A DNA stretch of 62,522 nt, the filler included, from Actinomycetota bacterium (GTDB lineage: Bacteria; Actinomycetota; Acidimicrobiia; IMCC26256; VFJJ01): assembly GCA_009886115.1 (NCBI GenBank). It is 4 parts of 4 records of this genome, joined end to end, with 100 filler letters (N's around TTAATTAATTAA, not from the genome) between each part and the next. Parts side by side here need not be neighbours in the genome. Positions count along the whole stretch, not along the records: positions 37,797 to 50,842 come from VFJJ01000216.1; 3 more parts are not named here. The stretch is one strand, 5' to 3'. Position numbers and translations under genes: made by a program. Positions 15,705 to 50,942 of the stretch are shown here, piece by piece. Below the pieces are notes generated by a model. It saw only the letters and a list, made by a program, of their open reading frames with translations. It searched no databases and had not been told where the DNA came from. Within the stretch, counting starts at the first letter, position 1. Each line of letters opens with the position of its first letter.

Positions 15705-15804
15705 NNNNNNNNNNNNNNNNNNNNNNNNNNNNNNNNNNNNNNNNNNNNTTAATTAATTAANNNNNNNNNNNNNNNNNNNNNNNNNNNNNNNNNNNNNNNN
15801 NNNN
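15705..15804. other. artificial contig linker
   Basis: N44-TTAATTAATTAA-N44. Confidence 0.98.
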
Positions 15805-37696: not shown

Positions 37697-37796
37697 NNNN
37701 NNNNNNNNNNNNNNNNNNNNNNNNNNNNNNNNNNNNNNNNTTAATTAATTAANNNNNNNNNNNNNNNNNNNNNNNNNNNNNNNNNNNNNNNNNNNN
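37697..37796. other. artificial contig linker
   Basis: N44-TTAATTAATTAA-N44. Confidence 0.98.
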
Positions 37797-39098
37797 CTGG
37801 GTGCCGATCAGGAGGTCCTTGAAGGGGACGCCCTTGTCTGGGCGGGGTTCTGAGGGCAGCCCAAGGGTGCGCTCACCGAGCACGTTGCGCTGCACCTCGT
37901 CGGAACCGCCGTAGATCGACGGGGCCGGGCTGAACAGCACCACCTCGTTGTACGCGCCTCGGTTCGGGGCGTCGGAACCGGCCAGGAGGGCGTCGGGGCC
38001 GAGGATGCGCACCACGAGATCACGGCCGAGCCTGACGATACGGCTCATCGCCAGCTTGGCCATGTTGGGCTCGCCACCCGTCAGCCGTCGACCGGCCTGG
38101 GCCGCTGCCTTGGCCCGCAGGTTCCCGAAGCGGCCGATCTGCTCGAGGGTTCGCAGACGCATCAGGTCTTGGCGGATGGTGGGGTCGCTCCACACGCCGC
38201 GCTCGCGCGCCAGGGCCACGAGCGCGGTGCTCGACAGCGCCGTGCCCCCACCCGCCGTCGTACCCCGTCGACCGGTGCGGACGAAGTCGCCGGCCCGCCG
38301 GGACAGATCGCCGACGATCGTGCCCGGTGCGGCCAGACCGGCCGCATTGTGGCCTCCAGCGCCGAGGCCGGCTCGCTCGAAGTTGAGCGTGGTGTTGGCG
38401 ACAGCCCAGCCGTTGTCGAGCCCGCCGATCAGCGTGTCGGCGTGGCTGCGGGCGTCGATGAGGAACACCTCGTTGAACAGGGCCCGGCCCGTCATCTCAC
38501 GCAGGGGTCGGACGTCGATGGCGTCGGGCTGATGCATCGGAAGCGCGAAGTACGAGATCCCCGCGTGCTTGGGCACCTCCACGTTGGTGCGAGCGAGCAG
38601 CATCCCCTGGTCGGCCTGGTGGCCACCCGAGGTCCAGACCTTCTGCCCGTTGAAGATCCACTCGTCGCCGTCACGAACGCCCTTGGTCTGCAGGCCGGCC
38701 AGGTCGGAGCCGGCGCCGGGCTCGCTGAAGAGCTGGCACCACGCCTCGGCGCCGGTGACGATCGGCCACAGGTAGCGCTGCTTCTGCTCGTCGGTGCCGT
38801 GGACGATGATCGTGGGCCCGGCGAGCAGCATCCCGAGGCCACCGGGCGGTCCGAGCACGTTCGCAGCCTCGAATTCGTGGACCACGACCGCCATGAGGTC
38901 ACGGGTCAGGCCCCGACCGTGCCATGCGGACGGCCATGTGGGCACGGCCCAGCCCGATCCCGCGAGCAGCTCCCACCAGCCGGCCACGGTCAGCTCGGGA
39001 TCCCAGTGCGTGTGCAGCCAGGCGGCCAGCTCCTCGCCCACCGACGCGGCGTCGGTCGTCTCGGACATCGAAGCCATCGGAACCTCCGGGTTACTCAC
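37797..39098 (-). CDS. acyl-CoA dehydrogenase (stop beyond contig end)
   Basis: WCQLFSEPGAGSDL, GQKVWTS, FNEVF, IYGGSDEVQRN. Confidence 0.93.
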
Positions 39099-39165
39099 GG
39101 GTAGGTCGCCCAGGCTATCGACCGGCCTGGTTGCCTGGCGGACGGATCGCCGTCAAGCTGCGCCG

Positions 39166-39681
39166 ATGAACCCGCCCGATGACAGCACCGTGCCGACGCC
39201 GGTCCCGCGCCTGGCCTTCGTCCACGCCGACGACGTGGCCTTCACCGAGGTCGTCGCGCAGGAGCATCCCGGGGGCCGGCGGGTGTCGGCGTACAACAAG
39301 TTCCTCGAATGGACCGACCGGCGCCTGGTGAACATCACCCGCTACGACCCGGGACTGGTACTCGAACGGCACGCGCATGCGAGCGATCACGTGGTGTTCG
39401 TACTGGAAGGCGACCTGGAGATCGGCGGCCGGCCCTGCCCCACGGGCACGCTCATCGTGCTCGAGCAGGGCGCGGTGTTCGGGCCGCTCATCGCCGGGGC
39501 CGACGGGTGCACGCTGTTCGAGCACTGGGCCGGCGATCCGATGCCGGTGCCCGTCGATCCTGACCTGTACCACCGGACACTCGACGAGCGCGGCATCACC
39601 CGTCTGCCCAATCCCCCGTTCGATCCACCGGCCCACCTGTCGAACCGTGAGCGATTCGGCCGGGGCGACCGCTTCTCGTGA
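39166..39681 (+). CDS. cupin domain protein
   Basis: RHAHASDHVVFVLEG...GPLIAG.DGC. Confidence 0.75.
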   Translation: MNPPDDSTVPTPVPRLAFVHADDVAFTEVVAQEHPGGRRVSAYNKFLEWTDRRLVNITRYDPGLVLERHAHASDHVVFVLEGDLEIGGRPCPTGTLIVLEQGAVFGPLIAGADGCTLFEHWAGDPMPVPVDPDLYHRTLDERGITRLPNPPFDPPAHLSNRERFGRGDRFS

Positions 39682-39767
39682 GCCCGGCAGTATCGTGAGG
39701 CCATCGTCGTCGGGGGTCACCTGCCGCTCGCGAGAGCCGAGTTCGGCCATGCCCGGGAGCCGGTGTC

Positions 39768-40571
39768 CTACCGGCGCTGGAACCTCGGGACCCGCTTCTC
39801 GGCGAAGGCCAGGGGACCCTCCTTGGCGTCGTCGGTGCGGAAGATCGCCGATCCGTAGTCCTGCTCGTAGGCGAAGGCCTCGGGCTCGGTCATGCCCTGG
39901 GTCTCGTGCAGCGTCTTGAGGATGGCCTCCACGGCCAGGGGCCCGTTGCCGGCGATGACCTCGGCGATCTCGCGGGCCTTGGCCAGCGCCTGACCGTCGG
40001 GCACGACGTGACCGATCAGCCCCAGCGACTTGGCCTCGGCCGCGGTGATGTGCTTGCCGGTGAGGAGGATGTCGGCCGCCTCGGTGTAGGGGATCTGGCG
40101 GGCCAGGCGCACCGCCGAGCCGCCCATCGGGTACAGCGACCAGCGGGCTTCCGAGACGCCGAAGCGAGCCGACTCGCCGGCCACCCTGATGTCGGTGCCC
40201 TGGAGGATCTCGGTGCCGCCGGCGATGGCGACCCCCTCGACGGCGGCGATCACCGGCTTGGTGGGCCGGTAGCTCTTGAGCAGTCCCTTGTAGATGAGGT
40301 CGGGGTCGGCGGCCAGTCGGGCCGGCACGTCGACCCCGCTCGACTCGCCGGCATCGCCCGCCATCGCCCGGAGATCGGCGCCCGACGAGAAGTTCCCGCC
40401 GGCCCCGGTGAGGATGATCGCCCTGACCGAGTCGTCGCGGCTGGCCTCCATCCAGGCGTCGGCCATGATGATGTACATGGCCAGCGTCTGGGCGTTCTTG
40501 CGCTCGGGACGGTTCAGCGTGACGGTCATCACGTGCCCGTCACGTTCGACGATGCAATCAGGCATCGGCAT
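39768..40571 (-). CDS. crotonase/enoyl-CoA hydratase
   Basis: [44 protein letters not shown]. Confidence 0.93.
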
Positions 40572-41760
40572 CGGAGGGCTCCTGGGTCGCGTCCGGCTGG
40601 TGGTACTCGGTGATGGCGTTGCCGATGGCTTCCTGCATGGCGCCGATGAACCGGGTGCTGTTCGACCCGGCCCAGGCCAGGCTGGCCTGGCGGTTCACGT
40701 TGGCTCCGCTGTAGTAGGGCATCACGTGACGGGCGAAGAGCTCGTAGCTGCGCCGGGTCGCCTCGGGGGTGGCTGCGGTGTGGGTGAGGAACAAGAGCGT
40801 GCCGAAGCCGCCGCTCTCGTCGACGAGACGGTCGATGGTGGCGATGATGTCGTCGGGCGTGCCGATCGTGGCCACGCCCAGCACGTGGAAGCCGTCGCCT
40901 CGCCACTGGTCGATCGCCGCCTGGGCCGACGACGCCCACGGCGGCATGCCCCTGCCGCCGAGGCCGCCCATGTAACGGGCCAGGTCGAGGATCCCGTGCG
41001 CCGCCTCGGCATCGGCCTGCTCGCGCGTCTCGGCGATGTGCATGGGGACGACCACCCGCCAGTCGGCCCGATCGGGCACGTGACCATGCTCGATCGCGGC
41101 CTTCTCGTAGATGGCCCAGTTGGCGGCCAGGGTGGCGAAACCCTGGGCGGTGCTCGCCGCGACCGACAGGAGTCCGGCGCCATGCCGGCCCGCAGCGACC
41201 GAACCCGTCGGTGAGAACGTCGACGCCACGGCCACGTCTATTCCGCGCCGCGGGTCATAGGGCAGAAGCTGGCAGCGGGCTTCGTCGAGCACGAACCAGT
41301 CGGTCTTGGCACTCACCACCTCGCCCCGCATCAGCGGGACGATCGCATCGAGGGCCTCGTGCATCATGCGCCGCTGGTCCCGGGGGTCGATGCCCATCAT
41401 GAAGGCGTCGGCGGGGAGCTGGCCGGGGCCGACGCCGAGCATCATCCGGCCCTGGGTCTGGTGGTCGAGCTGGATGATGCGATCGGCCAGCAGCAGCGGA
41501 TGGTGGTACGGCAGCGAGCTGACGCCCGTCCCGAAGCGGATGCGGCTCGTGTGCTCGGCCGCGGCAGCGATGAACACCTCGGGCGAGGCGATGATCTCGA
41601 AGGCCCCACTGTGGTGCTCGCCGATCCAGGCCTCGTCGTAGCCCAGCCGGTCGAGGTGCGCGATCAGCTCGATGTCCTGACGCAGCTGCAATGACGGATG
41701 CTGGCGATCGGAATGGAAGGGCGCGATGAACACGCCGAACTGCTGGGGACCTCTGGTCAT
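40558..41760 (-). CDS. LLM-class flavin monooxygenase (LimB-like)
   Basis: [41 protein letters not shown]. Confidence 0.9.
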
Positions 41761-41872
41761 CGGGCTTCCTCGAGGTGCCGGTCGCTCACTGGTCGGGTGC
41801 GGTGTCGGACAGTGCATCTGAGTCGGTGCGACCGGGCTCTCGCAAGGCGGGCGGCGGGGGCCCGGCCCCTCC

Positions 41873-42132
41873 TCAGCCGGCGGGGCTCGGCGTCAGGCGC
41901 CGCCGCAGGCTCCTGCGGTCACCGCTTCGGAGGAGGACCAGGGCGCAGAGCACCAAGCACAGAGCTCCCAGGGCGATGGGGTGCTGCGCCGCCGAGCCCT
42001 CGTCGCCGGGCTTGGGCTCGGGCTCGGTCGGCGACTCGGTCCTCGTGACACCGTCCACGGCGACCAGGTAGGTGCCCGAGCTCAGGCCCGGGACGGTGAG
42101 CTCCCCAGACGAGCTCCGACGTTGTCGGGTGG
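41873..42132 (-). pseudogene. orphan 3' end of a membrane-anchored protein
   Basis: GELTVPGLSSGTYLVAVDG...PEPKP...TM helix..RRR; the frame is closed upstream by a stop near 42133 with no signal peptide. Confidence 0.45.
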
Positions 42133-42261
42133 ATCATCCCGAGACGGACCGGCACTCCGCCAACTCAAGAACCAGCCCCCGAAATCACCCCAATGCGCCC
42201 CGCTATCGAAGTACCTCGCGAGGTTCAGTCCAGTTTCAGCGACCGTCGTGCTCATAACGAA

Positions 42262-42945
42262 CTAAGAGCTTGACGAGCGTCCGACGAAGCGCCACGGGCT
42301 GGCCTGGCGAGGAGTCTTGTACTGCTTGATGGACTGTTCGATCCGCGATCTGACGGACGGTTCGATCGAGATGAACCGACAGCGGACCAGATAGGTGGTT
42401 TCACCACCAAACATGGGGGGCTCGATTCCTGCCACCACCGCATCTGCGAAGGCCGACCCATCAGGGAGACCGATCCTCAGCACGAGGGCATCGCCGATGC
42501 TCAGGGAACGGTCAGCTCGAAATGACAAACCCCCGAGGCCGATATCCGTGGTCCTCGTCTCGATGCCCAGACGATCGGTGCCTGTTCCGGCCACGACGTT
42601 CAAGAGATACGCGACTTGAAGGCGACGGTTGTTGCGCTGTTCGATCCGGTCGACGATTCGCGGCAGGGTGCACACCACGAGACCATCGCCATCGAGTTCA
42701 ACCGTCTGCTCGATCAGGGTTCGGAAGGAGTCGACGCCCAGGTCCGACTCCCGAGTGACGACGACATTGCGCTCGCGGCGGGTTCGCAGTAGGCGGTCGC
42801 TCGCGCCGATTCGTACGCCAAACGCCGACTCGTTGACCACGGAGACGACGCCTCGGGATCTGATCGAACGCCAGAGATTCGGGCTGTAGCACAAGACGAC
42901 GGCATCGCCGACGGCCAGCGGAGCGTCGACATAGTCGATCATCAT
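42262..42945 (-). CDS. PilZ domain protein (YcgR/flagellar-brake-like architecture)
   Basis: N-terminal beta domain then EQRNNRR (RxxxR) and TTDIGLGG (variant of D/NxSxxG). Confidence 0.8.
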   Translation of the reverse strand: MMIDYVDAPLAVGDAVVLCYSPNLWRSIRSRGVVSVVNESAFGVRIGASDRLLRTRRERNVVVTRESDLGVDSFRTLIEQTVELDGDGLVVCTLPRIVDRIEQRNNRRLQVAYLLNVVAGTGTDRLGIETRTTDIGLGGLSFRADRSLSIGDALVLRIGLPDGSAFADAVVAGIEPPMFGGETTYLVRCRFISIEPSVRSRIEQSIKQYKTPRQASPWRFVGRSSSS

Positions 42946-42999
42946 GAGTGGGGTCCGCTCAGAATGTGCGCACTCCGCGCACCGGGTCCAATGTCCCAA

Positions 43000-43028
43000 G
43001 TATCGGTGGCCCTGAGACCAACCTTGAC
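43000..43028 (-). promoter_or_regulatory. sigma28/FliA-type promoter of pilZ
   Basis: Minus strand GTCA-N17-ACCGATAC. Confidence 0.65.
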
Positions 43029-43107
43029 AGACTGGCCCAGAATCGCCGCGTACGTGTGCTGCTGCTGCCGCTGTGTCGTTGTTAGCTCCTCATGGCCCGT
43101 ATAGGGA

Positions 43108-44331
43108 TCAGCGGAGATGGTTGCCGGTCCGAACCGACTCCCCGCGCAGCCGACGGACGGGTCCGTCGAGCAGTCGCTTGACCTCGGTCGCCAACGCTCG
43201 TCGGTGCTGCTCCTCGCAGGCGGCGGGGTCGTTGACCCGCGCCGTGACCCGCTCGACGAACTCGGGGATCTGACGGTACAGGTCGCTGATGATGGCTTCG
43301 ATCCCAGCGGAGGCCGAGGTCTGGGCCCATTCCCGAGTCGCATCGTCGACGAGTTGCTCCAACTGCCGGCGGTGGTCTTCCACCCGGCCGAGCGCGGACT
43401 CCACACCCGCGCCGATCCCGATCAGGTCCACGAGCTCGACGCCGGGCAGGCGGCCGGCGTCCGGATCGATGTTCCTCGGTAGACCAAGGTCGACCAGGAG
43501 CAAGGAGCCCACCTCACGCGGACCTGTCGCCTCGACGAGCTCGCGGGTGACCACCATGTGCGGTGCGGACGTGGCAGCGACGACCGTGTCGACGCGGCCC
43601 ATGAGGCCCGCGAGCTCGTCCCACTCGTGCGGCTCGGCGCACCACCGGCGGGCCACCGATTCGGTCGCCTGGTAACGGCGGCCGACGATCGAGACGTGAA
43701 CACCCGGCCGGCGCAGGGTCGCGGCCACGACACGCTTTGCCATCGCGCCGGTCCCGATCACGAGAACAGATCCGGAACCAGTCCCGGCGCTCGACCAACG
43801 GTCGAGCACCATGCGAGCCGCAGCATCGCCGGCGCTGGTGGCGATCTTGTCGAGGCCAAACTGACGACGTGCGTCACGTCCCAGCCGGATGGCGCGGGTG
43901 AACACATCGTTGATGCCGACCCTGGCGGTGCCGGCGCTCGCAGCGCTGGTCAGGGCCAAGCCGAGCTGCGACACGATCTGCGCGTCTCCGAAGACCGACG
44001 ACTCGAGCCCACATGACACCCGAAAGATGTGGCGGGCTGCCTCGCCGTCTCGGGCCTCGAAGGTCCACCCGGCATCGGAGGGATCGGTGACGACTCCATC
44101 GGCCAACACGTCGCGAAACGCCTCGACGGGGTCATCCTCGCTGGCGAGGTACCACTCGGTGCGGTTGCACGTGGACAGCAGCGCCACCTCGAGATCGGCC
44201 CGGCGGCTGCGCACGTGGCCCAGGGTCGCCATCGAACCGAACCCGCTCGTCGCCAGTTGCTCGAGGTGCGCGAGCGATGCGGTCCTCACGTTCGCACCCA
44301 CAACCGCGAGGTGCAGCTGTCGATTCTTCAC
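43108..44331 (-). CDS. hemA: glutamyl-tRNA reductase (divergent, stand-alone)
   Basis: LSTCNRTEWY, HIFRVSCGLES, GTGAMA, VAATSAPH, DLGLPRNIDP. Confidence 0.88.
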   Translation of the reverse strand: MKNRQLHLAVVGANVRTASLAHLEQLATSGFGSMATLGHVRSRRADLEVALLSTCNRTEWYLASEDDPVEAFRDVLADGVVTDPSDAGWTFEARDGEAARHIFRVSCGLESSVFGDAQIVSQLGLALTSAASAGTARVGINDVFTRAIRLGRDARRQFGLDKIATSAGDAAARMVLDRWSSAGTGSGSVLVIGTGAMAKRVVAATLRRPGVHVSIVGRRYQATESVARRWCAEPHEWDELAGLMGRVDTVVAATSAPHMVVTRELVEATGPREVGSLLLVDLGLPRNIDPDAGRLPGVELVDLIGIGAGVESALGRVEDHRRQLEQLVDDATREWAQTSASAGIEAIISDLYRQIPEFVERVTARVNDPAACEEQHRRALATEVKRLLDGPVRRLRGESVRTGNHLR

Positions 44332-44337
44332 CGGCGA

Positions 44338-46695
44338 TCAGGACCCGATGGACGCTTTGTCGCGTGAGAGGTTGGCGAGGAGCGACGGCGCCAGAGCCGA
44401 CAGCACTGCTGTGAGGTCGAGGATCTCGGTGACCCGCCCCTGGACCACGGCCGAACCGGTGATCCCGGCAGTGTTCGACACCTGCTGGACGACGATGCGT
44501 TCTTCGATGACATCGATGATGCGGTCCACCGCCACGCCGATCGTATGGCCGTCGATCGACAGGACCACCACGGCGGCGGTCTCGGACTCGCTGGTGGCGG
44601 CGTTCGGGAACAGGTCGGCGAGCCAGACGATCGGCATGATCGTTTCGCGGTACTGCACGACCTTCTGATTGCCGCTCTGCTCCATGGACGAGAGCGGGAT
44701 CTCCTCGAGGCGGTTCACGCTCGACAACGGCATCGCGGCGATGCGCTCCGACTCGCCCGTTCCGGTGCCGACGAGGAGCAGCCGCTGGCCGCGGTTCGCC
44801 TCGGACTCCTGGCGCACCGCCCCCGAGCCGTTCTTGGGTTCACGACTGGTGCCGAGGCCGGCGTTACCGGCAACCCCGAGCACGTCGAGGATCAGCCCCA
44901 CCCGGCCGTCGCCCATGATGGTTGCTCCGGCGAAGCTCGAGATGTGCTTGAGCAGCTTGCCGAGTGGCTTGACCACGATCTCCTCGGTGTCGAGGATATC
45001 GTCGACCACGAGACCGAAGGCCCGGTTGTCAGCCTGGAGAATGACGATGTTCAATGCGCCGTCGTGGTGCGAGACGGCCGTGTCGGACACGTCGCCCTGC
45101 CCCGCCGCGACCTCGTCCGCGGGAGCGACCTGCAGCTCCTGTTGGAGGTAGAGGAGCGGGAGGAGCTCGCCCCGCAAGCGGTAGACGAGCGCGCCGTGGA
45201 TCTCACTGATGCTGGCAGCCGCATGGCCCTCCTCGATACGCACCAGCTCGAGCAGGTTCACCTGGGGGATGGCGTAGGAGTCACCTGCCGTCTTCACCAT
45301 CAGAGCCGGGATGATGGCCAACGTGAGCGGGATCTTGATCCGGAAGGTCGTGCCCTGGCCGAGCGTCGTGTTGATGTCGATCGACCCGCCGATCTTCTCG
45401 ATGTTCGTCCGGACGACGTCCATGCCCACGCCTCGTCCGGAGAGGTTCGAGACCGTCTCAGCGGTCGAGAACCCGGGAAGGAAGATCAGGTCGAGGATCT
45501 CGCGGTCGCTCATCCGAGTGACCTGATCCGGGGTCACGGTGCCGCGGCTCAGCGCCTTCTCCCTGATCCGGGCGACGTCGATACCGCCGCCGTCGTCGCT
45601 GATCTCGATGTTGACCTGACCACCTTCGTGGTACGCACGGAGGTGGAGCCGGCCCTCCGCGGGCTTGCCGCAGGCCTCCCTCACCTCGGGCAGCTCGACT
45701 CCGTGATCGACGGCATTGCGCACCAGATGGGTGAGCGGGTCCTTGACGGCCTCGATGATCGTCTTGTCGAGCTCGGTCTCGGCGCCTTCCATCTCGACGC
45801 GCACGTGCTTGTGGCAGGTACCGGCGAGGTCGCGCACGATCCGGGGGAACTTGTTCCAGATGTTGCCGATCGGCTGCATCCGGGTCTTCATCACGCCTTC
45901 CTGGAGCTCGGTCGTGATGTGGTTGAGTCGCTGCGACGTCCCCAGGAACGAGGCCTCGGCGACGACCGCCGAGACCTGGAGGATCTGGTTGCGGGCCAGC
46001 ACCAGCTCGCCAACGAGGTTCATCAGCTTGTCGAGCAACCCGACGTCGACCCGGATGGTCGTGTCGGCGGCGCTACCAGCGCCGCTGGTCGGGGCTCCGG
46101 ATGCAACGGATGCGACGGCCGCCTCGTCGCCGCCGGCGGCGGTCGGAGCCGGGCCCGCCGGACCCACCCCGGCGGCCTCGTGGGTGTCGCCGGTCGGCAC
46201 CGGGGCCCCCCCCTCGTCACCGTCACGGACATCGTCAGAGGCAGCGTTGCCACCGGTGTCGCCGGTCGGTGCCGAGCCTGCGGGGTCGGCATGCGTTGCA
46301 CCGTCGCCTTCGCCGGCGAGGCGAGCGAGCCCGGCGATCATCTCGGCGTGGTCGTCGGTGCCGTCGTTCCCAACGGTCTCGAGGTGGCCGAGCATCACGC
46401 GCACCGCGTCGACCATGGCGAGGAGCGCGGACGTGATCTCCTCGGTGAGCTCGAGCTTCTTGTCCCGCAGGCGTGAGAGGAGATTCTCTCCCACGTGCGT
46501 CAGCGCCTCGAGGCGGTTGAGGCCGAGAAACCCCGAGCTCCCCTTGAGCGTGTGCACGGTGCGGAAGATCGAGGCGATGATCTCCTCGTTGGGTTCGGTT
46601 TCCAGGACGATGAACTGCCGGTCCAGGTTGTCGAGATTCTCGTAGCTCTCGACGAGGAACTCCTGAACCAGCTCATCGACTACCAAGTCGCTCAT
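44338..46695 (-). CDS. cheA: chemotaxis histidine kinase CheA with two CheW-like domains
   Basis: FRTVHTLKG (Hpt His), IRVDVGLLDKLMNLVGELVL, HLVRNAVDHG, DDGGG, FLPGFST, GRGVGMDVV, two CheW folds. Confidence 0.96.
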   Translation of the reverse strand: MSDLVVDELVQEFLVESYENLDNLDRQFIVLETEPNEEIIASIFRTVHTLKGSSGFLGLNRLEALTHVGENLLSRLRDKKLELTEEITSALLAMVDAVRVMLGHLETVGNDGTDDHAEMIAGLARLAGEGDGATHADPAGSAPTGDTGGNAASDDVRDGDEGGAPVPTGDTHEAAGVGPAGPAPTAAGGDEAAVASVASGAPTSGAGSAADTTIRVDVGLLDKLMNLVGELVLARNQILQVSAVVAEASFLGTSQRLNHITTELQEGVMKTRMQPIGNIWNKFPRIVRDLAGTCHKHVRVEMEGAETELDKTIIEAVKDPLTHLVRNAVDHGVELPEVREACGKPAEGRLHLRAYHEGGQVNIEISDDGGGIDVARIREKALSRGTVTPDQVTRMSDREILDLIFLPGFSTAETVSNLSGRGVGMDVVRTNIEKIGGSIDINTTLGQGTTFRIKIPLTLAIIPALMVKTAGDSYAIPQVNLLELVRIEEGHAAASISEIHGALVYRLRGELLPLLYLQQELQVAPADEVAAGQGDVSDTAVSHHDGALNIVILQADNRAFGLVVDDILDTEEIVVKPLGKLLKHISSFAGATIMGDGRVGLILDVLGVAGNAGLGTSREPKNGSGAVRQESEANRGQRLLLVGTGTGESERIAAMPLSSVNRLEEIPLSSMEQSGNQKVVQYRETIMPIVWLADLFPNAATSESETAAVVVLSIDGHTIGVAVDRIIDVIEERIVVQQVSNTAGITGSAVVQGRVTEILDLTAVLSALAPSLLANLSRDKASIGS

Positions 46696-46794
46696 CACAT
46701 CCCCGCTCGACGGAAGTTGTTGTGGTTCCGCTACCCGTGGAGCCGCAGGCACCTGAGCAGGTGACCGCGACTCCACGGGTCCGGCACGGCGAGA

Positions 46795-49053
46795 TCAGCT
46801 CTTCGAGGTGGACAGAGCCAGGAGCTGGGCGGCCAGCCGGGAGAGCTCCACGCTGGCACCTTGCACCTCGGAGGCACCCTGCGTCGTCTGGTTCGCGCTC
46901 TCGGCGACCCCTCCGATGTTCTCGGTGATGCTGGCGACGCCAGTCGCGGCCTCCTGGACCGAGCGACTCATCTCGGCCGTCGTGGCCGACTGCTCCTCCA
47001 CCGCCGTTGCGATGGTGGCGGAGATGTCGTTGATCTCGCCGATCACCTGCGAGATCGTCCCGATGGCCGATACGGCGTGCTGCGTGTCGACCTGGATGGC
47101 CTCGATCTTCTGGCCGATGTCCTCGGTCGCCCTGGCGGTTTCCTTGGCCAGCTCCTTGACCTCGTTGGCGACCACGGCGAATCCCTTGCCGGCCTCGCCG
47201 GCCCGAGCGGCCTCGATCGTGGCGTTGAGGGCGAGGAGGTTGGTCTGCTGGGCGATCAGGGTGATCACCTTGATGACCTTGCCGATCTCCACGCTGCTCT
47301 CGCCGAGCTTGCCGATCATCTCGTTCGCCTCGCTGGCCGTGACCACCGCCGAGCCCGTCACCTGGGCCGCCCGTGAGGCGTTGTTGGCGATCTCACCGAT
47401 GCTCGCGGTCATCTCCTCGGCCGCGCTCGCCACGGTCTGGACGTTCTCGGTCACCTGATCCGACGATGCCGACACGACCGTCGCCTGGGTTGCGGTCTCC
47501 TCGGCGCCAGCGCTGAGCGTGGTGGCGGTGGCTGTGAGCTCCTCGGCGGCACCGGCGAGACTCTGCGCGATCTCGGCCGTCTCGGCCGCGATCCGGGTCA
47601 TCTCCTCGGTGCGGATACGGTCGGCCTCGGCGGCCTGCAGACGACCGATCGCCTCCCCGAGGCCCCGACCTACTCCCCGGAGCGTGTCGAAGCGCCCCTC
47701 CGACGGGTCGAGGATCTCGGTGGCGAACCAGTCCAACGTCCCCGCCACGGCGCCGCCCACCATGATCGGGACGCACACACCCGACTTCACACCCACTCGC
47801 TTGGCGATCGGGGCCCGGCAACAATCGGTCATGTCGCCGATGTCCTTGGCGAAGAACAGGTCGCGGGTCCTCCACGCCCGGCCCGACAGCCCCACACCCT
47901 CGGCGAACGACGCCTCCTGTGTCACCCGACGGAACTCCTCACCGGCATCACCCGACTCGGCCGCGAAGCGCAGCACGTTGGCCGTCGGGTCGATCGCCCA
48001 GTACGAGCTGTACACCCACCCGAACTCGTTGCGGACCGCATCGAGCGCGTCCTGCACAGCCTGCTCGGCCGACTCGGCAGCCGCCAGCGCCCCGCTGACC
48101 TTGAACGACGCTGCCAAGTTCTCCGCCATGTCCTTCATCTGCGCTTCAGCCTGATCCTTGGCACGAAGCTGCTCGGTGACCACCGACCACGAGGCCATCG
48201 CGCCGATGTAGTCGCCTGAGGTGTCGAGGATCGGCGAGACCAGCAGGTCGAGCGTCTCCGGCCCGACCTGGATGTTCGCCTGGCGGGGAAGGTGCGCCTT
48301 CGGGTCAGCGAGGAGCCCCCGCTGATAGCTCGGGTCCTTGTGGAAGATGTCGATCGACTGGCCGATCAGGTCGTCGACCTTGACCGGCAGGAAGGCCTCC
48401 AGCGTCTTCAACGTCTTCACCGATGCAGGGTTCATGTACCGCAGGATGAGATCCTTGTCGGCGAACATGACGTTGATCGGCGCGTTCTCGAGCAGCTGAT
48501 GCGCAAAGTCGACGTCCTGTGAGTTCTCGAGTACCGCGCTTGCACCGTTGAGGGCCATGGACTGCTCCGTTTCCGCGGCCCGATCGCCGCTGCTTGTCGT
48601 GCTCGCCGTGTTCGCTTCATTGCTCGGGGTGGGGTTGCCGTCGTGCGAGACGATGTCGGCCGACAGCGGCGCCACGACGCTGACGACCTCGTCGATGAGA
48701 TCGGTCGAGACGCCGAGCGACACCAGGACCTCGACGAGATGCCCGGCGACCCGGTCGAAGTCCTGCTGGTGGATCGCCAGGTGGGCGTGGGCCGCGGACA
48801 TGCTGGGACCCTTGTAGATCGCCGGCCCGCCCAACGCCGTCGAGAGGAACTGGACCTGCCGGTTCTTCAGGCGGGTCACGTTCACATCATCGAAGAACCC
48901 GACCAGCTCCGGGTCGCCGAGCAGGCGCTCGTAGAGCGCATCGACCGCGGCAACGATCGAGTTCTTGCCGCCGAGACGCTCATACAGGCTCGGGGGCCCG
49001 GTCTCGGGAGCGGGGGGGGCTTTCGCCACGACAGCGGAGCGATGCTCGGCCAT
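46795..49053 (-). CDS. soluble MCP: truncated globin (group I) - Aer2-like PAS - GAF - signalling domain
   Basis: [75 protein letters not shown]; no TM helix. Confidence 0.93.
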
Positions 49054-49119
49054 GCAACACCACCTCTGGTCAGTAGTTCGGACAGTTGGACGGGGGGTCC
49101 AAGAGGGATATCTCGTCGG

Positions 49120-49147
49120 TTATCGGACGATCGCCGCGAACCTTGAG
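49120..49147 (-). promoter_or_regulatory. sigma28/FliA-type promoter of the MCP-cheA-hemA unit
   Basis: Minus strand CTCA-N16-TCCGATAA. Confidence 0.75.
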
Positions 49148-49174
49148 AGCATTGTGCGAAAAGAGGTCATTCAT

Positions 49175-49224
49175 GATCCGCGAAAGAGGACGATCCGCGA
49201 AACAGGACGATCCGCGAAAGAGGA
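49175..49224 (+). repeat. 17-bp tandem repeat x3
   Basis: gatccgcgaaa(g/c)aggac, contiguous copies. Confidence 0.9.
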
Positions 49225-49330
49225 ACTGCGGGAGCTGCGGGTCGAGGGCGTGCTCGGTGCCGTGCGTCGTTCCACCAAGGGAACTGAACCGGGGGATCCG
49301 TGGGGTTCAGTGCCGATCACCGTTGCTCGG

Positions 49331-49771
49331 CTAGTCGGCGCGGCTTACCTCGGCGGCCTTGTCGGCGTCGAGGATCAGAAGCAGCCGGTCCTCGAGCTTG
49401 TAGATGCCCTCGATCAATTCACCGGGAACACCCCGGATGGTGTCGAGCCGTCGCTCGAAGATCTCGTCACCGACCTCGACGACGTCGCCGATCTCATCGA
49501 CCAGAAAGCTCACGGGCCCGTCGTCGGTACGTACGACGACGTTCATCGGTAACTGGTCGTCTGGGCGCTCGGACAGTTCGAGTCGGCGACGGAGATCCAG
49601 CGCTGTGACGATCTGGCCGCGCAGGTTGATGAGGCCCTCCACCACTGCCGGGGCCAGCGGGACGTGCGTCATCTGCTGATAGCGGATGACCTCCTGGACC
49701 CGAAGCACGTCGACTCCGAAGTAGTGCTCATCCAAGAGAAACGTGCAGTATTGGCGTGCCCGCTCGGCCAT
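49331..49771 (-). CDS. cheW: chemotaxis coupling protein CheW
   Basis: QYCTFLL..FGVDVLRVQEV..GLINLRGQIV..LVDEIGDV. Confidence 0.96.
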   Translation of the reverse strand: MAERARQYCTFLLDEHYFGVDVLRVQEVIRYQQMTHVPLAPAVVEGLINLRGQIVTALDLRRRLELSERPDDQLPMNVVVRTDDGPVSFLVDEIGDVVEVGDEIFERRLDTIRGVPGELIEGIYKLEDRLLLILDADKAAEVSRAD

Positions 49772-49835
49772 GGTCGGTTCCCCTGAGCCCAGGATCGGCA
49801 ACCCCGATCCGATCCGTGATTTGCGATTCGTGATG

Positions 49836-49864
49836 ACATCGGGCAGTTGGGCTCTCGACTTGAG
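49836..49864 (-). promoter_or_regulatory. sigma28/FliA-type promoter of cheW
   Basis: Minus strand CTCA-N17-CCCGATGT. Confidence 0.65.
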
Positions 49865-49936
49865 CGAATCGCGCAAGTTTTTCCGGCTCCTCGAGAACAC
49901 GAGACAGCTCGACCTACCCGCGTAGTCGCGCGGCTC

Positions 49937-50614
49937 ATGGTCGCTCGGGCGGATCGCAGCTGTGCTTATCCTTTCTCGCCAGCCGCCGATTTCCCCAGTA
50001 TGCAGGCCGTTCTGCGACAAGCAGCCCTCGAGTTCGTCGATGTCGATGCGGAGACGTTCCTGCGCATGGTCCGCCACCGGACCTCGTCCGACGCTGCCAA
50101 GGGCGGCGTGAGGTCCCAGTACGAAGCCCAGCTGGCTCGGGGCGACTCGTCGGTACAGGTGTTGGGTCTTACAGCGTGCGGAACGCTGGTCGGAGCGGTC
50201 AGCGTCGGCTTGGTCGACCTACGCCTCAAACCGGACACGGTCGGAGGGCGTATCGACATCGTCGTCACCGAACCGCACTGTCGCGGACTCGGCGTCGGTG
50301 GAGTGCTCGTCGCCGCGGCCATCCAGCGTCTCATCACCGATCACGGTCCCAGATTGCGGCACCTCTCCACGATCGCCGTGCACCCCGCGATCGCCCACAT
50401 GGTCGAGAACCTCGAGTTCATCCGCGTTCCCACGGGCGACGTTCCTCTCTACGCTCGCGATGTGGAGGAAGCCACCATCGCCGCGTTGAGCAAGCGGGCC
50501 AGCACATTGCTGAGCTCGTCGCTGAGGAGTCTGCGCCTGCGTTGCGTGGATTGCCGACGCAAGCAGTGGTCTGAACCCTGGTGCCTTCCGAGTCCGACCC
50601 GTCGCAACGTCTGA
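49937..50614 (+). CDS. GNAT family acetyltransferase (start uncertain)
   Basis: IDIVVTEPHCRGLGVGGVL acetyl-CoA motif A; C-terminal CVDC...C. Confidence 0.7.
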   Translation: MVARADRSCAYPFSPAADFPSMQAVLRQAALEFVDVDAETFLRMVRHRTSSDAAKGGVRSQYEAQLARGDSSVQVLGLTACGTLVGAVSVGLVDLRLKPDTVGGRIDIVVTEPHCRGLGVGGVLVAAAIQRLITDHGPRLRHLSTIAVHPAIAHMVENLEFIRVPTGDVPLYARDVEEATIAALSKRASTLLSSSLRSLRLRCVDCRRKQWSEPWCLPSPTRRNV

Positions 50615-50735
50615 TCCCGCCCGATCGGCTGCCGGTTCCTGGTGCCTCCCAAAACGAGGCGTAGGCCACCGAGGTCCGCTCAGGAATGTGCCCCAACTCG
50701 TGGATCTTCACTCAGGTCGCGTCGGCCTGCATCCG

Positions 50736-50842
50736 TGTCGACGTTCAAGTAATCCACCGCGTGGTGGGTGGTGTGTTCAAGTAATCCTCCGGCGGGCGTT
50801 CACGTATTCCCTCGCGGCGCGTTCACGTTATGGAGCGGCGCC
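50736..50842. mobile_element. probable IS end with multiple terminal repeats (IS21-like)
   Basis: TGTCGAC start; gttca(a/c)gt-core repeats at 50743, 50775, 50798, 50821; contig breaks at 50842. Confidence 0.55.
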
Positions 50843-50942
50843 NNNNNNNNNNNNNNNNNNNNNNNNNNNNNNNNNNNNNNNNNNNNTTAATTAATTAANN
50901 NNNNNNNNNNNNNNNNNNNNNNNNNNNNNNNNNNNNNNNNNN
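50843..50942. other. artificial contig linker
   Basis: N44-TTAATTAATTAA-N44. Confidence 0.98.

Follow-up and report, generated by a model that had tools for sequence, protein, structure and literature searches.

Gene organization and domain layout

The window, meaning the whole stretch of 62,522 nucleotides that was analyzed (filler included), carries a cheW, receptor and cheA gene set on the minus strand of a single contig. The coordinates of the receptor gene were exactly those of the first-pass annotation, which had described a chemoreceptor without a transmembrane helix that fuses an HbN-like 2/2 truncated globin to an Aer2-type heme PAS domain and a GAF domain. The genes, and the features within the receptor gene, are listed below.

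49331..50077, minus strand: cheW, upstream of the receptor gene (Pfam CheW, 101.6 bits)
46795..49053, minus strand: receptor gene, open reading frame of 752 aa with an ATG start and an SD-like GAGG upstream of it
49000..49053, minus strand: residues 1–18, disordered N-terminal extension (pLDDT <50), not aligned to HbN, at the position of the HbN pre-A segment
48643..48999, minus strand: residues 19–137, group I (N) truncated globin (Pfam Bac_globin, match to HbN 1idr, residue positions, family conservation; pLDDT 75–94), with Tyr41 (B10), Phe54 (CD1), Leu62 (E7), Gln66 (E11), Leu70 (E15), His89 (F8), Val102 (G8), and Gly-Gly at 28–29 and 75–76
48502..48642, minus strand: residues 138–184, disordered low-complexity tether (pLDDT <50, without secondary structure)
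48556..48568, minus strand: internal SD and start, with GGAG at 48565–48568, 6 nt, and the in-frame ATG of Met166 at 48556–48558
48175..48501, minus strand: residues 185–293, Aer2-type PAS-heme domain (matches to 6ceq, 3vol and 4hi4; pLDDT 62–80), with His238 and Trp289
48079..48174, minus strand: residues 294–325, continuous PAS-GAF helix (AF2 model)
47635..48078, minus strand: residues 326–473, GAF domain (Pfam GAF_2, family alignment; model pLDDT 93.3), with invariant W346, Y348, W352, GVGLSGRAW at 386–394, D410-C411-x-R-A-P and GVKSG at 421–425
46798..47634, minus strand: residues 474–752, kinase-control (MCP signaling) hairpin (Pfam MCPsignal), with the hairpin motif EAARAGE at 614
44338..46776, minus strand: cheA, 18 nt downstream of the receptor gene, with Hpt, dimerization, HATPase_c and two CheW-like domains
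43108..44331, minus strand: divergent paralogue of glutamyl-tRNA reductase (HemA-like), 6 nt beyond cheA, keeping the catalytic-Cys motif STCNRTE

Pfam recognized Bac_globin (residues 22–134, 71.6 bits, cut-off 21), GAF_2 (327–469, 52.3 bits) and MCPsignal (574–722, 102.9 bits) above cut-off. The PAS segment fell under the cut-off of every Pfam PAS model (PAS_4 15.7, PAS_10 16.7) and was recognized through the solved Aer2 domains instead. In the AF2 model the globin, PAS and GAF domains were folded, residues 138–184 were disordered, and one helix ran from 452 to 751. A Kyte-Doolittle scan found no transmembrane helix; the highest 19-residue mean was 1.65, at residues 109 and 426, and both maxima lie within the confidently folded globin and GAF cores of the model. 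The earlier domain calls, the soluble character of the protein and the positions of Tyr41, Phe54, Leu62, Gln66, His89, His238 (in IDIFHK, 234–239) and Trp289 thus all held.

The MAG contig that carries the gene is 13 kb long, and split versions of the gene pair occur elsewhere, as would be expected if the fusion were an artefact of assembly or gene calling, or a decaying gene without a function as a single protein. We consider this highly improbable, as the 752-codon frame is uninterrupted, the key residues are all intact, and in-frame fusions were found in 16 independent assemblies and 44 database proteins.

The truncated globin

A phmmer search against the PDB aligned residues 19–138 without gaps to residues 11–130 of Mycobacterium tuberculosis HbN (1idr, E 9.8e-27), with about 48 of the 120 aligned positions identical when counted in the printed alignment. 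The constant offset of 8 places the five globin residues on HbN Tyr33, Phe46, Leu54, Gln58 and His81, which confirms the 13/8/4/23 spacing proposed at first pass. HbN scored 96.9 bits, other group I truncated hemoglobins 63–78 bits and the group II protein HbO 15 bits; by these matches and by Pfam PF01152 (Bac_globin), the domain is nearer to group I than to groups II or III. The group I (N) residue set is complete, with HisF8, TyrB10, PheCD1, LeuE7, GlnE11 and ValG8 (not TrpG8) represented by H89, Y41, F54, L62, Q66 and V102. Gly-Gly hinge motifs are defining for truncated hemoglobins, and both were present at the AB and EF corners (G28-G29 and G75-G76); G28, G75 and G76 were invariant and G29 was kept in at least 90% of 20 sequences. 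The six-residue set is conserved across the family, in which TyrB10 and HisF8 were each kept in 43 of 44 globin domains.

All six heme-site residues and both Gly-Gly motifs are identical to those of HbN, whereas HbN is free-standing and the present globin is fused to a receptor, its pre-A segment cannot be aligned, and its NO dioxygenase activity is only predicted. HbN is described as a potent NO dioxygenase in which Phe62 (PheE15) is the NO-gate residue of the long tunnel, and PheE15 substitutions roughly halved the activity (PMC3493545). This gate is absent here, where Leu70 aligns to HbN Phe62, which counts against an NO dioxygenase role; the E15 column of the family (n = 44) holds F in 19 domains, L in 17, V in 5, I in 2 and M in 1. 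No reductase partner for a catalytic NO dioxygenase cycle was identified. The Leu at the gate position is a point absent from the first-pass annotation.

The receptor also resembles HemAT and other globin-coupled sensors in placing a globin before an MCP signaling domain in a soluble, aerotaxis-type protein. The HemAT globin is of the 3/3 S family, whereas the present one is of the 2/2 T family, and a 3/3 sensor globin was not supported (Pfam Protoglobin, 17.3 bits vs. a cut-off of 25). Where HemAT joins globin and output by a helical linker, the model has PAS and GAF in between and a tether that is disordered.

The heme-PAS domain, the GAF domain and the output module

The PAS domain matched the solved Aer2 PAS-heme domains 6ceq (E 2e-16), 3vol (E 6.8e-13) and 4hi4 (E 3.5e-11). 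In these alignments a 12-residue stretch of the query falls on IDVFHKNPAHQR, and the query Trp falls on the Trp of QWTDRTE. The earlier match of His238 in IDIFHK and of Trp289 to Aer2 was therefore upheld. In Aer2 PAS domains, the E-eta His ligates heme and the Trp of I-beta stabilizes O2 (PMC10107281). By alignment, His238 is the predicted proximal heme ligand and Trp289 the predicted O2-stabilizing I-beta Trp. The His was kept in 258 and the Trp in 271 of the 276 PAS domains of the family. The conservation of the globin and PAS heme sites points to purifying selection on both, and since the heme-ligand residues are so clearly conserved across the family, a two-heme cytoplasmic receptor is a fair reading of the sequence.

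The GAF domain was the most conserved sensor module, with 67% mean column identity and 41 invariant columns in the family alignment. According to the model it lies within the rigid signaling path immediately before the kinase-control helix, and the MCP hairpin runs straight on from the last GAF helix (helix 452–751). Relatives carry one to four GAF copies, and 16 of the best 120 homologues have GAF and MCP domains without PAS. These features would suit a receptor in which GAF reads a small molecule or a redox state as the main input through the invariant Cys411 of D-C-x-R-A-P, with the heme domains acting as redox/oxygen permission modules or being partly vestigial. We regard that arrangement as unlikely; vestigial heme domains would not keep their ligand residues so conserved, and a ligand of the GAF domain could not be inferred. 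A fold search returned generic GAF folds only (TM ~0.78, 12–19% identity; fRMsr 3mmh, the cAMP-binding Lcd1 GAF 5w10 and phytochromes), and the best match of a PDB sequence search was the MYC3 N-terminal domain (E 0.05).

The GAF-to-MCP spacing is 7 aa, vs. a family median of 58. The C-arm of the hairpin measures 130 residues, or 18.6 heptads as counted without class-specific MCP HMMs, which suggests a hairpin of predicted 36H length. The best NCBIfam model for the signaling module was Vibrio Aer2, a partial match of 151.8 bits vs. an equivalog cut-off of 1200. No HAMP domain was found by Pfam at E up to 1, so the HAMP or poly-HAMP flanking of PAS seen in the Aer2 family is missing.

Distribution and attachment of the globin

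Among the best 120 homologues, 44 carry a globin (23 of them together with GAF) and 76 have the same PAS/GAF/MCP core without it. The receptor-fused globin is N-terminal in all 44, and most of the closest relatives with a single globin are chemosensory (MCPsignal in 10 of the 16 long ones, a CheA link in 1). Both observations, together with the conservation of both heme pockets, would be consistent with the main idea of the first-pass annotation, in which the globin is a true second sensor, either detecting O2 over two ranges or comparing O2 with NO, and would signal by reversible, ligand-dependent docking onto the PAS/GAF spine. The O2 affinities of Aer2 and HbN differ by orders of magnitude. 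Truncated hemoglobins with TyrB10 and GlnE11 have low O2 off-rates, and this pocket would give the globin an affinity range unlike that of the Aer2 PAS; the same source predicts NO detoxification for subgroups resembling Mt-trHbN (PMC4720485). The way in which the globin is attached argues against a second sensor. The other junctions have short, fixed connectors, with median linkers of 2 aa for PAS-PAS (n = 171), 16 aa for PAS-GAF (n = 65; range 16–24 aa) and 17 aa for GAF-GAF (n = 77). The globin junction, unlike every other one, has no fixed-length or helical connector: the globin-PAS linker is 19–54 aa in 35 of 40 cases, with an extra PAS between in the other 5, and is unconserved, low in complexity and rich in P/S/T/G/N. 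This difference in connectors is a new observation. Sequence and model together show a rigid signaling spine leading from the PAS heme through a continuous helix and GAF to the kinase-control hairpin, without HAMP; ahead of it the globin, its proximal His intact and its distal pocket made up of Tyr/Gln/Leu/Val, hangs N-terminally from ~45 disordered residues.

Of the globins at 20 GTDB loci, 16 were fused in frame, two were separate genes (L001 and L075), one was fused to CheA-REC rather than to the receptor (L019), and one had no PAS downstream (L059). In L001 and L075 the stop codon of the globin gene lies within the AAGGAG-ATG junction before the receptor gene, and the two genes are translationally coupled. 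Split-gene (two loci) and CheA-fused (one locus) globins are new. The globin-less majority of core homologues (76/120), together with the split and CheA-fused loci, suggests that the globin is dispensable and able to act in trans. The same facts weigh against a second sensor, as does the lack of any known docking interface. A modeled complex of the globin and PAS alignments with two hemes scored 0.00 in a run without controls and speaks neither for nor against docking. Since a disordered tether is compatible with ligand-dependent docking, we keep the second sensor as a doubtful but possible alternative.

In 12 of 17 fused genes, with Met166 here among them, the globin is closely followed by an in-frame start that has an SD ahead of it, vs. 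166 of 884 control windows (18.8%), an excess whose significance is overstated because the genes counted are related to one another. The retention of this internal start is also new. The split genes L001 and L075 share the junction, but with a stop codon. The SD and ATG at Met166 may be a relic of gene fusion or a start still used for a predicted globin-less PAS-GAF-MCP isoform. A per-start-codon SD count (17/88 in linkers vs. 85/619 elsewhere) was uninformative, as its window included PAS-initial Met codons; the per-gene comparison of windows given above took its place.

A globin-domain tree (97 rows by 115 columns, excluding multi-globin proteins and domains <100 aa) was poorly resolved; the MCP-fused state needs 23 changes on it, and at least 5 are forced by starred branches. 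Among the short globins in this tree may be some split-gene partners.

Comparison with described receptors

The Bac_globin, PAS and MCPsignal architecture was described in silico in 2018 by Sharma, Parales and Singer (PMC6194562), who reported Cc_4972 of Corallococcus coralloides and six other such proteins with a predicted function. The present protein likewise combines these three Pfam domains in a polypeptide without a transmembrane segment; it adds GAF, and has a single PAS and no HAMP. A further likeness is an ABC1 kinase, which lies in the che cluster of several loci (L003, L063) and on contig C110 in the present genome. The accessible text of that paper assigns neither the PAS to the Aer2 heme type nor the globin to group I; in a term search Aer2, nitric oxide and HDOD were absent, and GAF came up solely as a light sensor of a generic kind. 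The novelty implied by the first-pass annotation was not borne out, since the architecture was already in print and is frequent in metagenomes and MAGs across many phyla, being widespread in uncultured bacteria. The annotation had also named, as grounds for refuting it, an architecture already common and characterized. Common it is, but a 2026 aerotaxis review, in its accessible text, treats it as predicted only (PMC13401364), and our literature searches found no experimental study of the exact domain combination.

The closest characterized relatives are the Aer2 receptors (Pseudomonas aeruginosa Aer2/McpB, Vibrio cholerae Aer2 and the tri-PAS Aer2 of V. vulnificus). Like them, the present receptor is soluble, carries the I-beta Trp along with the IDxFHK..P..QR heme-His motif, is encoded in a cheA/cheW cluster of its own, and has a signaling module closest to the Aer2 model; tandem PAS-heme copies are frequent among its relatives. 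In contrast to Aer2, GAF and plain helices replace the HAMP or poly-HAMP, and a truncated hemoglobin precedes the PAS at the N-terminus. The genes of the cluster (HDOD, CheX, ABC1 kinase and a GlutR-like gene) are not the F7 gene set of PMC7184735, and Aer2 is an accessory system beside a main one, whereas the present receptor is the sole one found.

Chemosensory context and proposed function

One MCPsignal match was found in the whole genome, a 95.6% complete MAG; that the receptor is the only MCP found is new and rests on an assembly of 224 contigs. The cheW and cheA beside it are the only separate CheW gene and the only CheA-type locus found; cheY, cheX, cheB, cheR and HDOD lie together on another contig. 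Flagellin, FliG and FlhA are present. With a single receptor found in a flagellated organism, we propose that its taxis is essentially gas or redox taxis.

On balance we think the protein is probably a soluble, Aer2-related heme gas chemoreceptor with a rigid PAS-GAF spine and the globin as a tethered accessory heme module. It would feed the single CheA/CheW pair of the genome, and by analogy with Aer2 the primary signal would be O2 binding at the PAS heme. The heme of Aer2 also binds NO and CO, and the PAS heme here may do so too. The globin would be kept at the chemosensory array to act on what the PAS heme meets, and may consume NO by HbN-like dioxygenase chemistry or buffer O2 at very low tension; alternatively, it might modulate the receptor by reversible docking rather than through a mechanical linker. 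Several points count against this explanation: the PAS lies under all Pfam PAS cut-offs and is modeled with moderate confidence (pLDDT 62–80), the SD and ATG could be a mere fusion relic, and GAF could supply the true input or one of equal rank.

We rate a conditioner of NO or O2 as likelier than a second sensor with rigid coupling. The first-pass annotation had offered three functions, comparing O2 with NO, covering two affinity ranges, or shielding the PAS heme from NO; shielding or conditioning of the PAS heme fits better, and a rigidly coupled O2/NO comparator less well, because of the disordered tether, the split genes, the CheA-fused globin and the globin-less relatives. In its strictest form, which we put forward tentatively, the truncated hemoglobin would be an array-resident enzyme or buffer and not a sensor, removing NO or clamping O2 near the heme-PAS, held there through the receptor, the CheA N-terminus or a coupled gene, with the internal start giving guarded and unguarded receptors. 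Met166 may yield a globin-less isoform, in which case the proportion of receptors with and without the guard could be adjusted by the cell.

If the globin is a conditioner, the receptor would report O2 faithfully under nitrosative conditions, would be the first chemoreceptor with its own ligand-conditioning enzyme, and would give group I truncated hemoglobins a physiological role beyond pathogen defense. The role of most bacterial truncated hemoglobins is an open question, and here a group I member is linked to an assayable output, CheA kinase control and swimming. The tie to chemotaxis is seen in three ways, by fusion, operon and translational coupling. As the globin sits beside a well-understood heme-PAS sensor with a defined output, its role as NO shield, O2 buffer or second sensor is open to test by the assays available for Aer2. 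The organism seems to navigate by a single receptor and would be a clean natural system for gas taxis, a value tempered by an architecture already published at the Pfam level and common in metagenomes.

Other features of the locus

A promoter and terminator scan of 41800–50842 gave no promoter-like and three terminator-like sites, not above shuffled sequences. A neighboring pilZ gene was considered as a conserved output and set aside as probably incidental, because none of the 78 related loci had a PilZ match. The HemA-like paralogue downstream of cheA shares 28% identity with the canonical copy, which lies on contig C54, and in 7 of the 78 related loci a gene of its type comes after the receptor.

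Domain identities of the receptor

The receptor ORF begins with ATG, has 752 codons and carries each of the seven residues named in the first-pass annotation (five in the globin, His238 and Trp289) at its expected position. The whole receptor was modelled with AlphaFold2 using 28 aligned relatives (mean pLDDT 75.4), and the GAF domain was also modelled alone (pLDDT 93.3).

Features of the receptor (residue ranges from the AlphaFold2 model, except the GAF domain)
window 46795-49053 (-): receptor ORF
residues 19-137: 2/2 globin, confident
residues 138-184: segment after the globin, pLDDT <50, without secondary structure
residues 185-293: PAS fold, pLDDT 62-80
residues 294-325: single unbroken helix into GAF
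residues 326-473, window 47635-48078 (-): GAF

When residues 1-142 were searched against all PDB chains, the top match was M. tuberculosis HbN (1idr, E 9.8e-27). Because receptor residues 19-138 aligned gap-free with HbN residues 11-130, Tyr33, Phe46, Leu54, Gln58 and His81 of HbN correspond to Tyr41, Phe54, Leu62, Gln66 and His89 of the receptor, with Val102 at ValG8; the top match and these pocket residues bear out the proposed HbN-like globin. Other group-I truncated haemoglobins scored 63-78 bits against 15 bits for group-II HbO, which places the globin in group I by sequence. At position E15, missed by the first-pass annotation, the receptor has Leu70, versus Phe62 in HbN, the PheE15 described as its NO gate (PMC3493545).

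Pfam detected Bac_globin (71.6 bits), GAF_2 (52.3) and MCPsignal (102.9) in the receptor, and the PAS segment fell under every Pfam PAS cut-off. The same segment matched solved Aer2 PAS-haem domains (6ceq, E 2e-16; 3vol, E 6.8e-13; 4hi4, E 3.5e-11); a 12-residue motif aligned with IDVFHKNPAHQR of Aer2 and Trp289 aligned with the Aer2 Trp, in agreement with the Aer2-type haem PAS that had been proposed. No transmembrane segment was present in the receptor, as had also been noted, since the two 19-mers of highest hydrophobicity (mean 1.65) lie inside the folded globin and GAF cores.

The GAF model matched generic GAF folds only, at 12-19% identity. Its signature was strongly conserved, with an invariant Cys411 within D-C-x-R-A-P and a W-x-Y-x-S-x-W motif. 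Plant bHLH-MYC N-terminal and NLP GAF-like domains gave weak sequence matches and have a 'C-x-RA' stretch in common with it; in relatives this GAF subtype occurs in tandem, in up to four copies.

In the AlphaFold2 model, the MCP coiled coil directly prolongs the last GAF helix without a break, and no HAMP domain was detected in the receptor by Pfam; in most relatives, about 58 residues, often a HAMP, separate GAF from MCP. The C-terminal MCP arm has 130 residues, or 18.6 heptads, and the top NCBIfam model for the output module was Vibrio Aer2 (151.8 bits; runner-up, 100.9). Aer2 receptors are assigned to the 36H class (PMC7184735), and the arm length and top model are consistent with, though short of proof of, a 36H output module.

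Globin-bearing relatives

A family search with receptor residues 1-480 found 1819 proteins, of which the best 120 were mapped with domain profiles derived from the receptor itself. A globin stood at the N-terminal start of 44, while 76 had the same core without it. The globin-bearing homologues followed the order globin, one to six Aer2-type PAS, zero to three GAF and MCP, with GAF present in 23 of the 44. The receptor is the minimal form of this pattern, being the sole globin-PAS-GAF-MCP case with a single PAS and a single GAF among the best 120. Haem residues were conserved in globin and PAS domains alike: TyrB10 in 43, PheCD1 in 42, LeuE7 in 38, GlnE11 in 36 and HisF8 in 43 of the 44 globins, and the PAS His and Trp in 258 and 271 of 276 domains, respectively.

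An exhaustive globin-only search (E up to 0.001) yielded 4501 representative clusters, headed by tandem multi-globin proteins. Many tandem truncated-globin units were seen in database proteins P0121-P0172, where as many as 13 stretches of an 1882-aa protein were matched. Among single-globin matches, stand-alone truncated haemoglobins and N-terminal fusions were equally close (50-59% identity). Sixteen long single-globin matches were annotated for domains: ten carried MCPsignal, three, possibly fragments, had globin and PAS but no detected output domain, one was CheA-associated (P0256), one, a close relative, joined the globin to an E1 dehydrogenase component (P0230), and in one only the globin was visible (P0246, 296 aa).

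Across species-representative genomes, the globin was present in 20 of the 78 related loci kept, distributed over Acidobacteriota, Actinomycetota, Spirochaetota, Verrucomicrobiota, Planctomycetota (including a Kuenenia MAG), Alphaproteobacteria, Bdellovibrionota and Gemmatimonadota; the globin tree could not resolve the number of fusion events.

Attachment of the globin

Spacings between domains were short and near-fixed at all junctions except after the globin.

Inter-domain spacings
PAS-PAS: median 2 aa
PAS-GAF: 16 aa, range 16-24
GAF-GAF: 17 aa, range 13-22
globin-PAS: 35 of 40 linkers 19-54 aa long, unconserved and with many P/S/T/G/N residues; an additional PAS lies in between in the remaining five

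Sixteen of the 20 globin loci encode in-frame globin-receptor fusions. In two Acidobacteriota loci (L001 and L075) the globin is a separate gene, its stop codon lying within an AAGGAG-ATG junction to the receptor gene; in L019 it forms the N-terminus of a CheA-REC protein, as confirmed by Pfam, and L059 has no downstream PAS. The L019 protein is one 1196-aa frame (L019:1874-5461, +) containing Bac_globin, Hpt, H-kinase_dim, HATPase_c, two CheW and REC, and adjoins a five-PAS MCP without globin; P0256 is a second CheA-associated globin.

The linker of the receptor gene reads GGAG, 6 nt, ATG (Met166), then 'ALNG', and fused linkers look as if they retain an AAGGAG-ATG-like split-gene junction. 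A Shine-Dalgarno-preceded in-frame start right after the globin was found in 12 of 17 fused genes versus 166 of 884 equal-sized control windows from the same ORFs, where the nominal binomial P of 5e-6 overstates the case because the fused genes are mutually related.

Proposed function of the globin

A rigid, Aer2-like signal path would run from the PAS haem through the helix and GAF to the kinase-control hairpin. In Aer2, the E-eta His is reported to bind haem and the I-beta Trp to hydrogen-bond O2, starting signalling (PMC10107281). The globin would be an accessory haem module retained at the array and not a mechanically coupled input, since a disordered tether is its sole join, some loci encode it separately or as part of CheA, and most relatives lack it. 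The main rival is a second-sensor role in which the globin would act through docking. As an accessory module, the globin could act as an NO shield or O2 buffer for the neighbouring PAS haem; this role is favoured by a distal pocket that is that of HbN, described as a potent NO dioxygenase (PMC3493545; PMC4720485), and weakened by the Leu at E15 and by the lack of an identified reductase. The observations of the first-pass annotation were confirmed, and its interpretation, a two-haem receptor that could compare O2 and NO, cover two affinity ranges or shield the PAS haem, was supported in part only.

Comparison with known systems

Aer2 receptors are the closest characterised systems and have the PAS-haem type and output module in common with the receptor, but they have HAMPs instead of its globin and GAF. 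The novelty implied at first was not supported: Bac_globin+PAS+MCPsignal was already described in silico in seven proteins from 8,075 complete genomes (Sharma, Parales and Singer 2018, PMC6194562), and was still presented as an in-silico prediction in a 2026 aerotaxis review (PMC13401364). The receptor is a variant of that architecture. The globin literature seems to have paid little attention to group-I chimeras: the Fig. 1 legend of a 2020 review gives bacterial chimeric T globins for groups O and P only (PMC7475203). A full-text literature search found no experimental study of globin-PAS-MCP receptors. Full-text searches also retrieved no passages on the Aer2-type assignment of PAS in globin-bearing receptors, the GAF-containing, HAMP-less variant, the contrast of a loose globin tether with fixed junctions, the split-gene and CheA-fused globin forms, or the internal start after the globin. 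The receptor type is common and predicted in print, yet through it the function of a group-I truncated haemoglobin could be tested directly.

Genomic context

Paired 44-N runs with 12 bases between them mark contig joins at 15705-15804, 37697-37796 and 50843-50942, so the window concatenates at least four contigs and genes flanking a join are not shown to be neighbours. On the minus strand, cheW is followed by the receptor gene, then by cheA after 18 nt, by the GlutR/HemA-like gene after a further 6 nt, and by pilZ.

Features around the receptor gene
window 37797-50842: contig C37, 13,046 bp, carrying the receptor gene
window 43108-44331 (-): divergent GlutR/HemA-like paralogue, 6 nt after cheA
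window 42262-42999 (-): PilZ-domain gene, 108 nt downstream of the GlutR-like gene

The receptor was the sole MCPsignal match in its own genome (5.45 Mb, 224 contigs, 95.6% complete), which has one CheA, one separate CheW gene, flagellin, FliG and FlhA. On contig C110, cheY, cheX, cheB and cheR are clustered with an HDOD gene, and an ABC1 kinase is encoded close by. The usual order in other phyla is cheA, cheW, receptor, optional GlutR-like and ABC1 genes, cheY, cheB, cheR, HDOD and cheX, with CheA identity across phyla of about 50%; this gene set is that reported for Corallococcus Cc-5 by Sharma et al. (PMC6194562). The HDOD gene recurs beside cheR (L079, G000:C110:610-1440; L001:12104-13012).

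Chemotaxis was rare among relatives of this genome: any MCP was found in five of 21 searched genomes, this one included, and the globin+PAS pair in this one only. A same-genus genome has a single MCP adjoining cheA (L081, G001:C25:619-5324), whose signalling module is 56% identical to that of the receptor over 252 gapless residues and whose sensor is 4HB (transmembrane-type) plus HAMP in place of globin-PAS-GAF, suggesting either a swap of the sensor end or separate acquisition of the two clusters.

The GlutR/HemA-like paralogue keeps the catalytic STCNRTE motif and shares 28% identity with the canonical copy, which lies on contig C54. A GlutR-like gene follows an Aer2-PAS receptor in seven of the 78 related loci (L003, L009, L011, L014, L017, L021 and L076) and may tie haem supply to the multi-haem receptor.

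GlutR-like genes in related loci
L003:6903-8174
L009:9936-11210
L014:11299-12480

The PilZ-domain gene had no match in the 78 related loci and is therefore probably an incidental neighbour of the che cluster.

The receptor's own genome encodes a second group-I-like truncated globin (C6:16151-16534, -), whose N-terminus resembles a Tat signal plus lipobox (RRRFLGASG...LAAC), suggesting that it may be exported or lipid-anchored. Two readings of this frame disagree: one counts one TGA within the match itself, and the other, which begins above 16534, ahead of the signal-like stretch, meets no stop before the one that ends the globin. A third globin, on C193, looks like group II.
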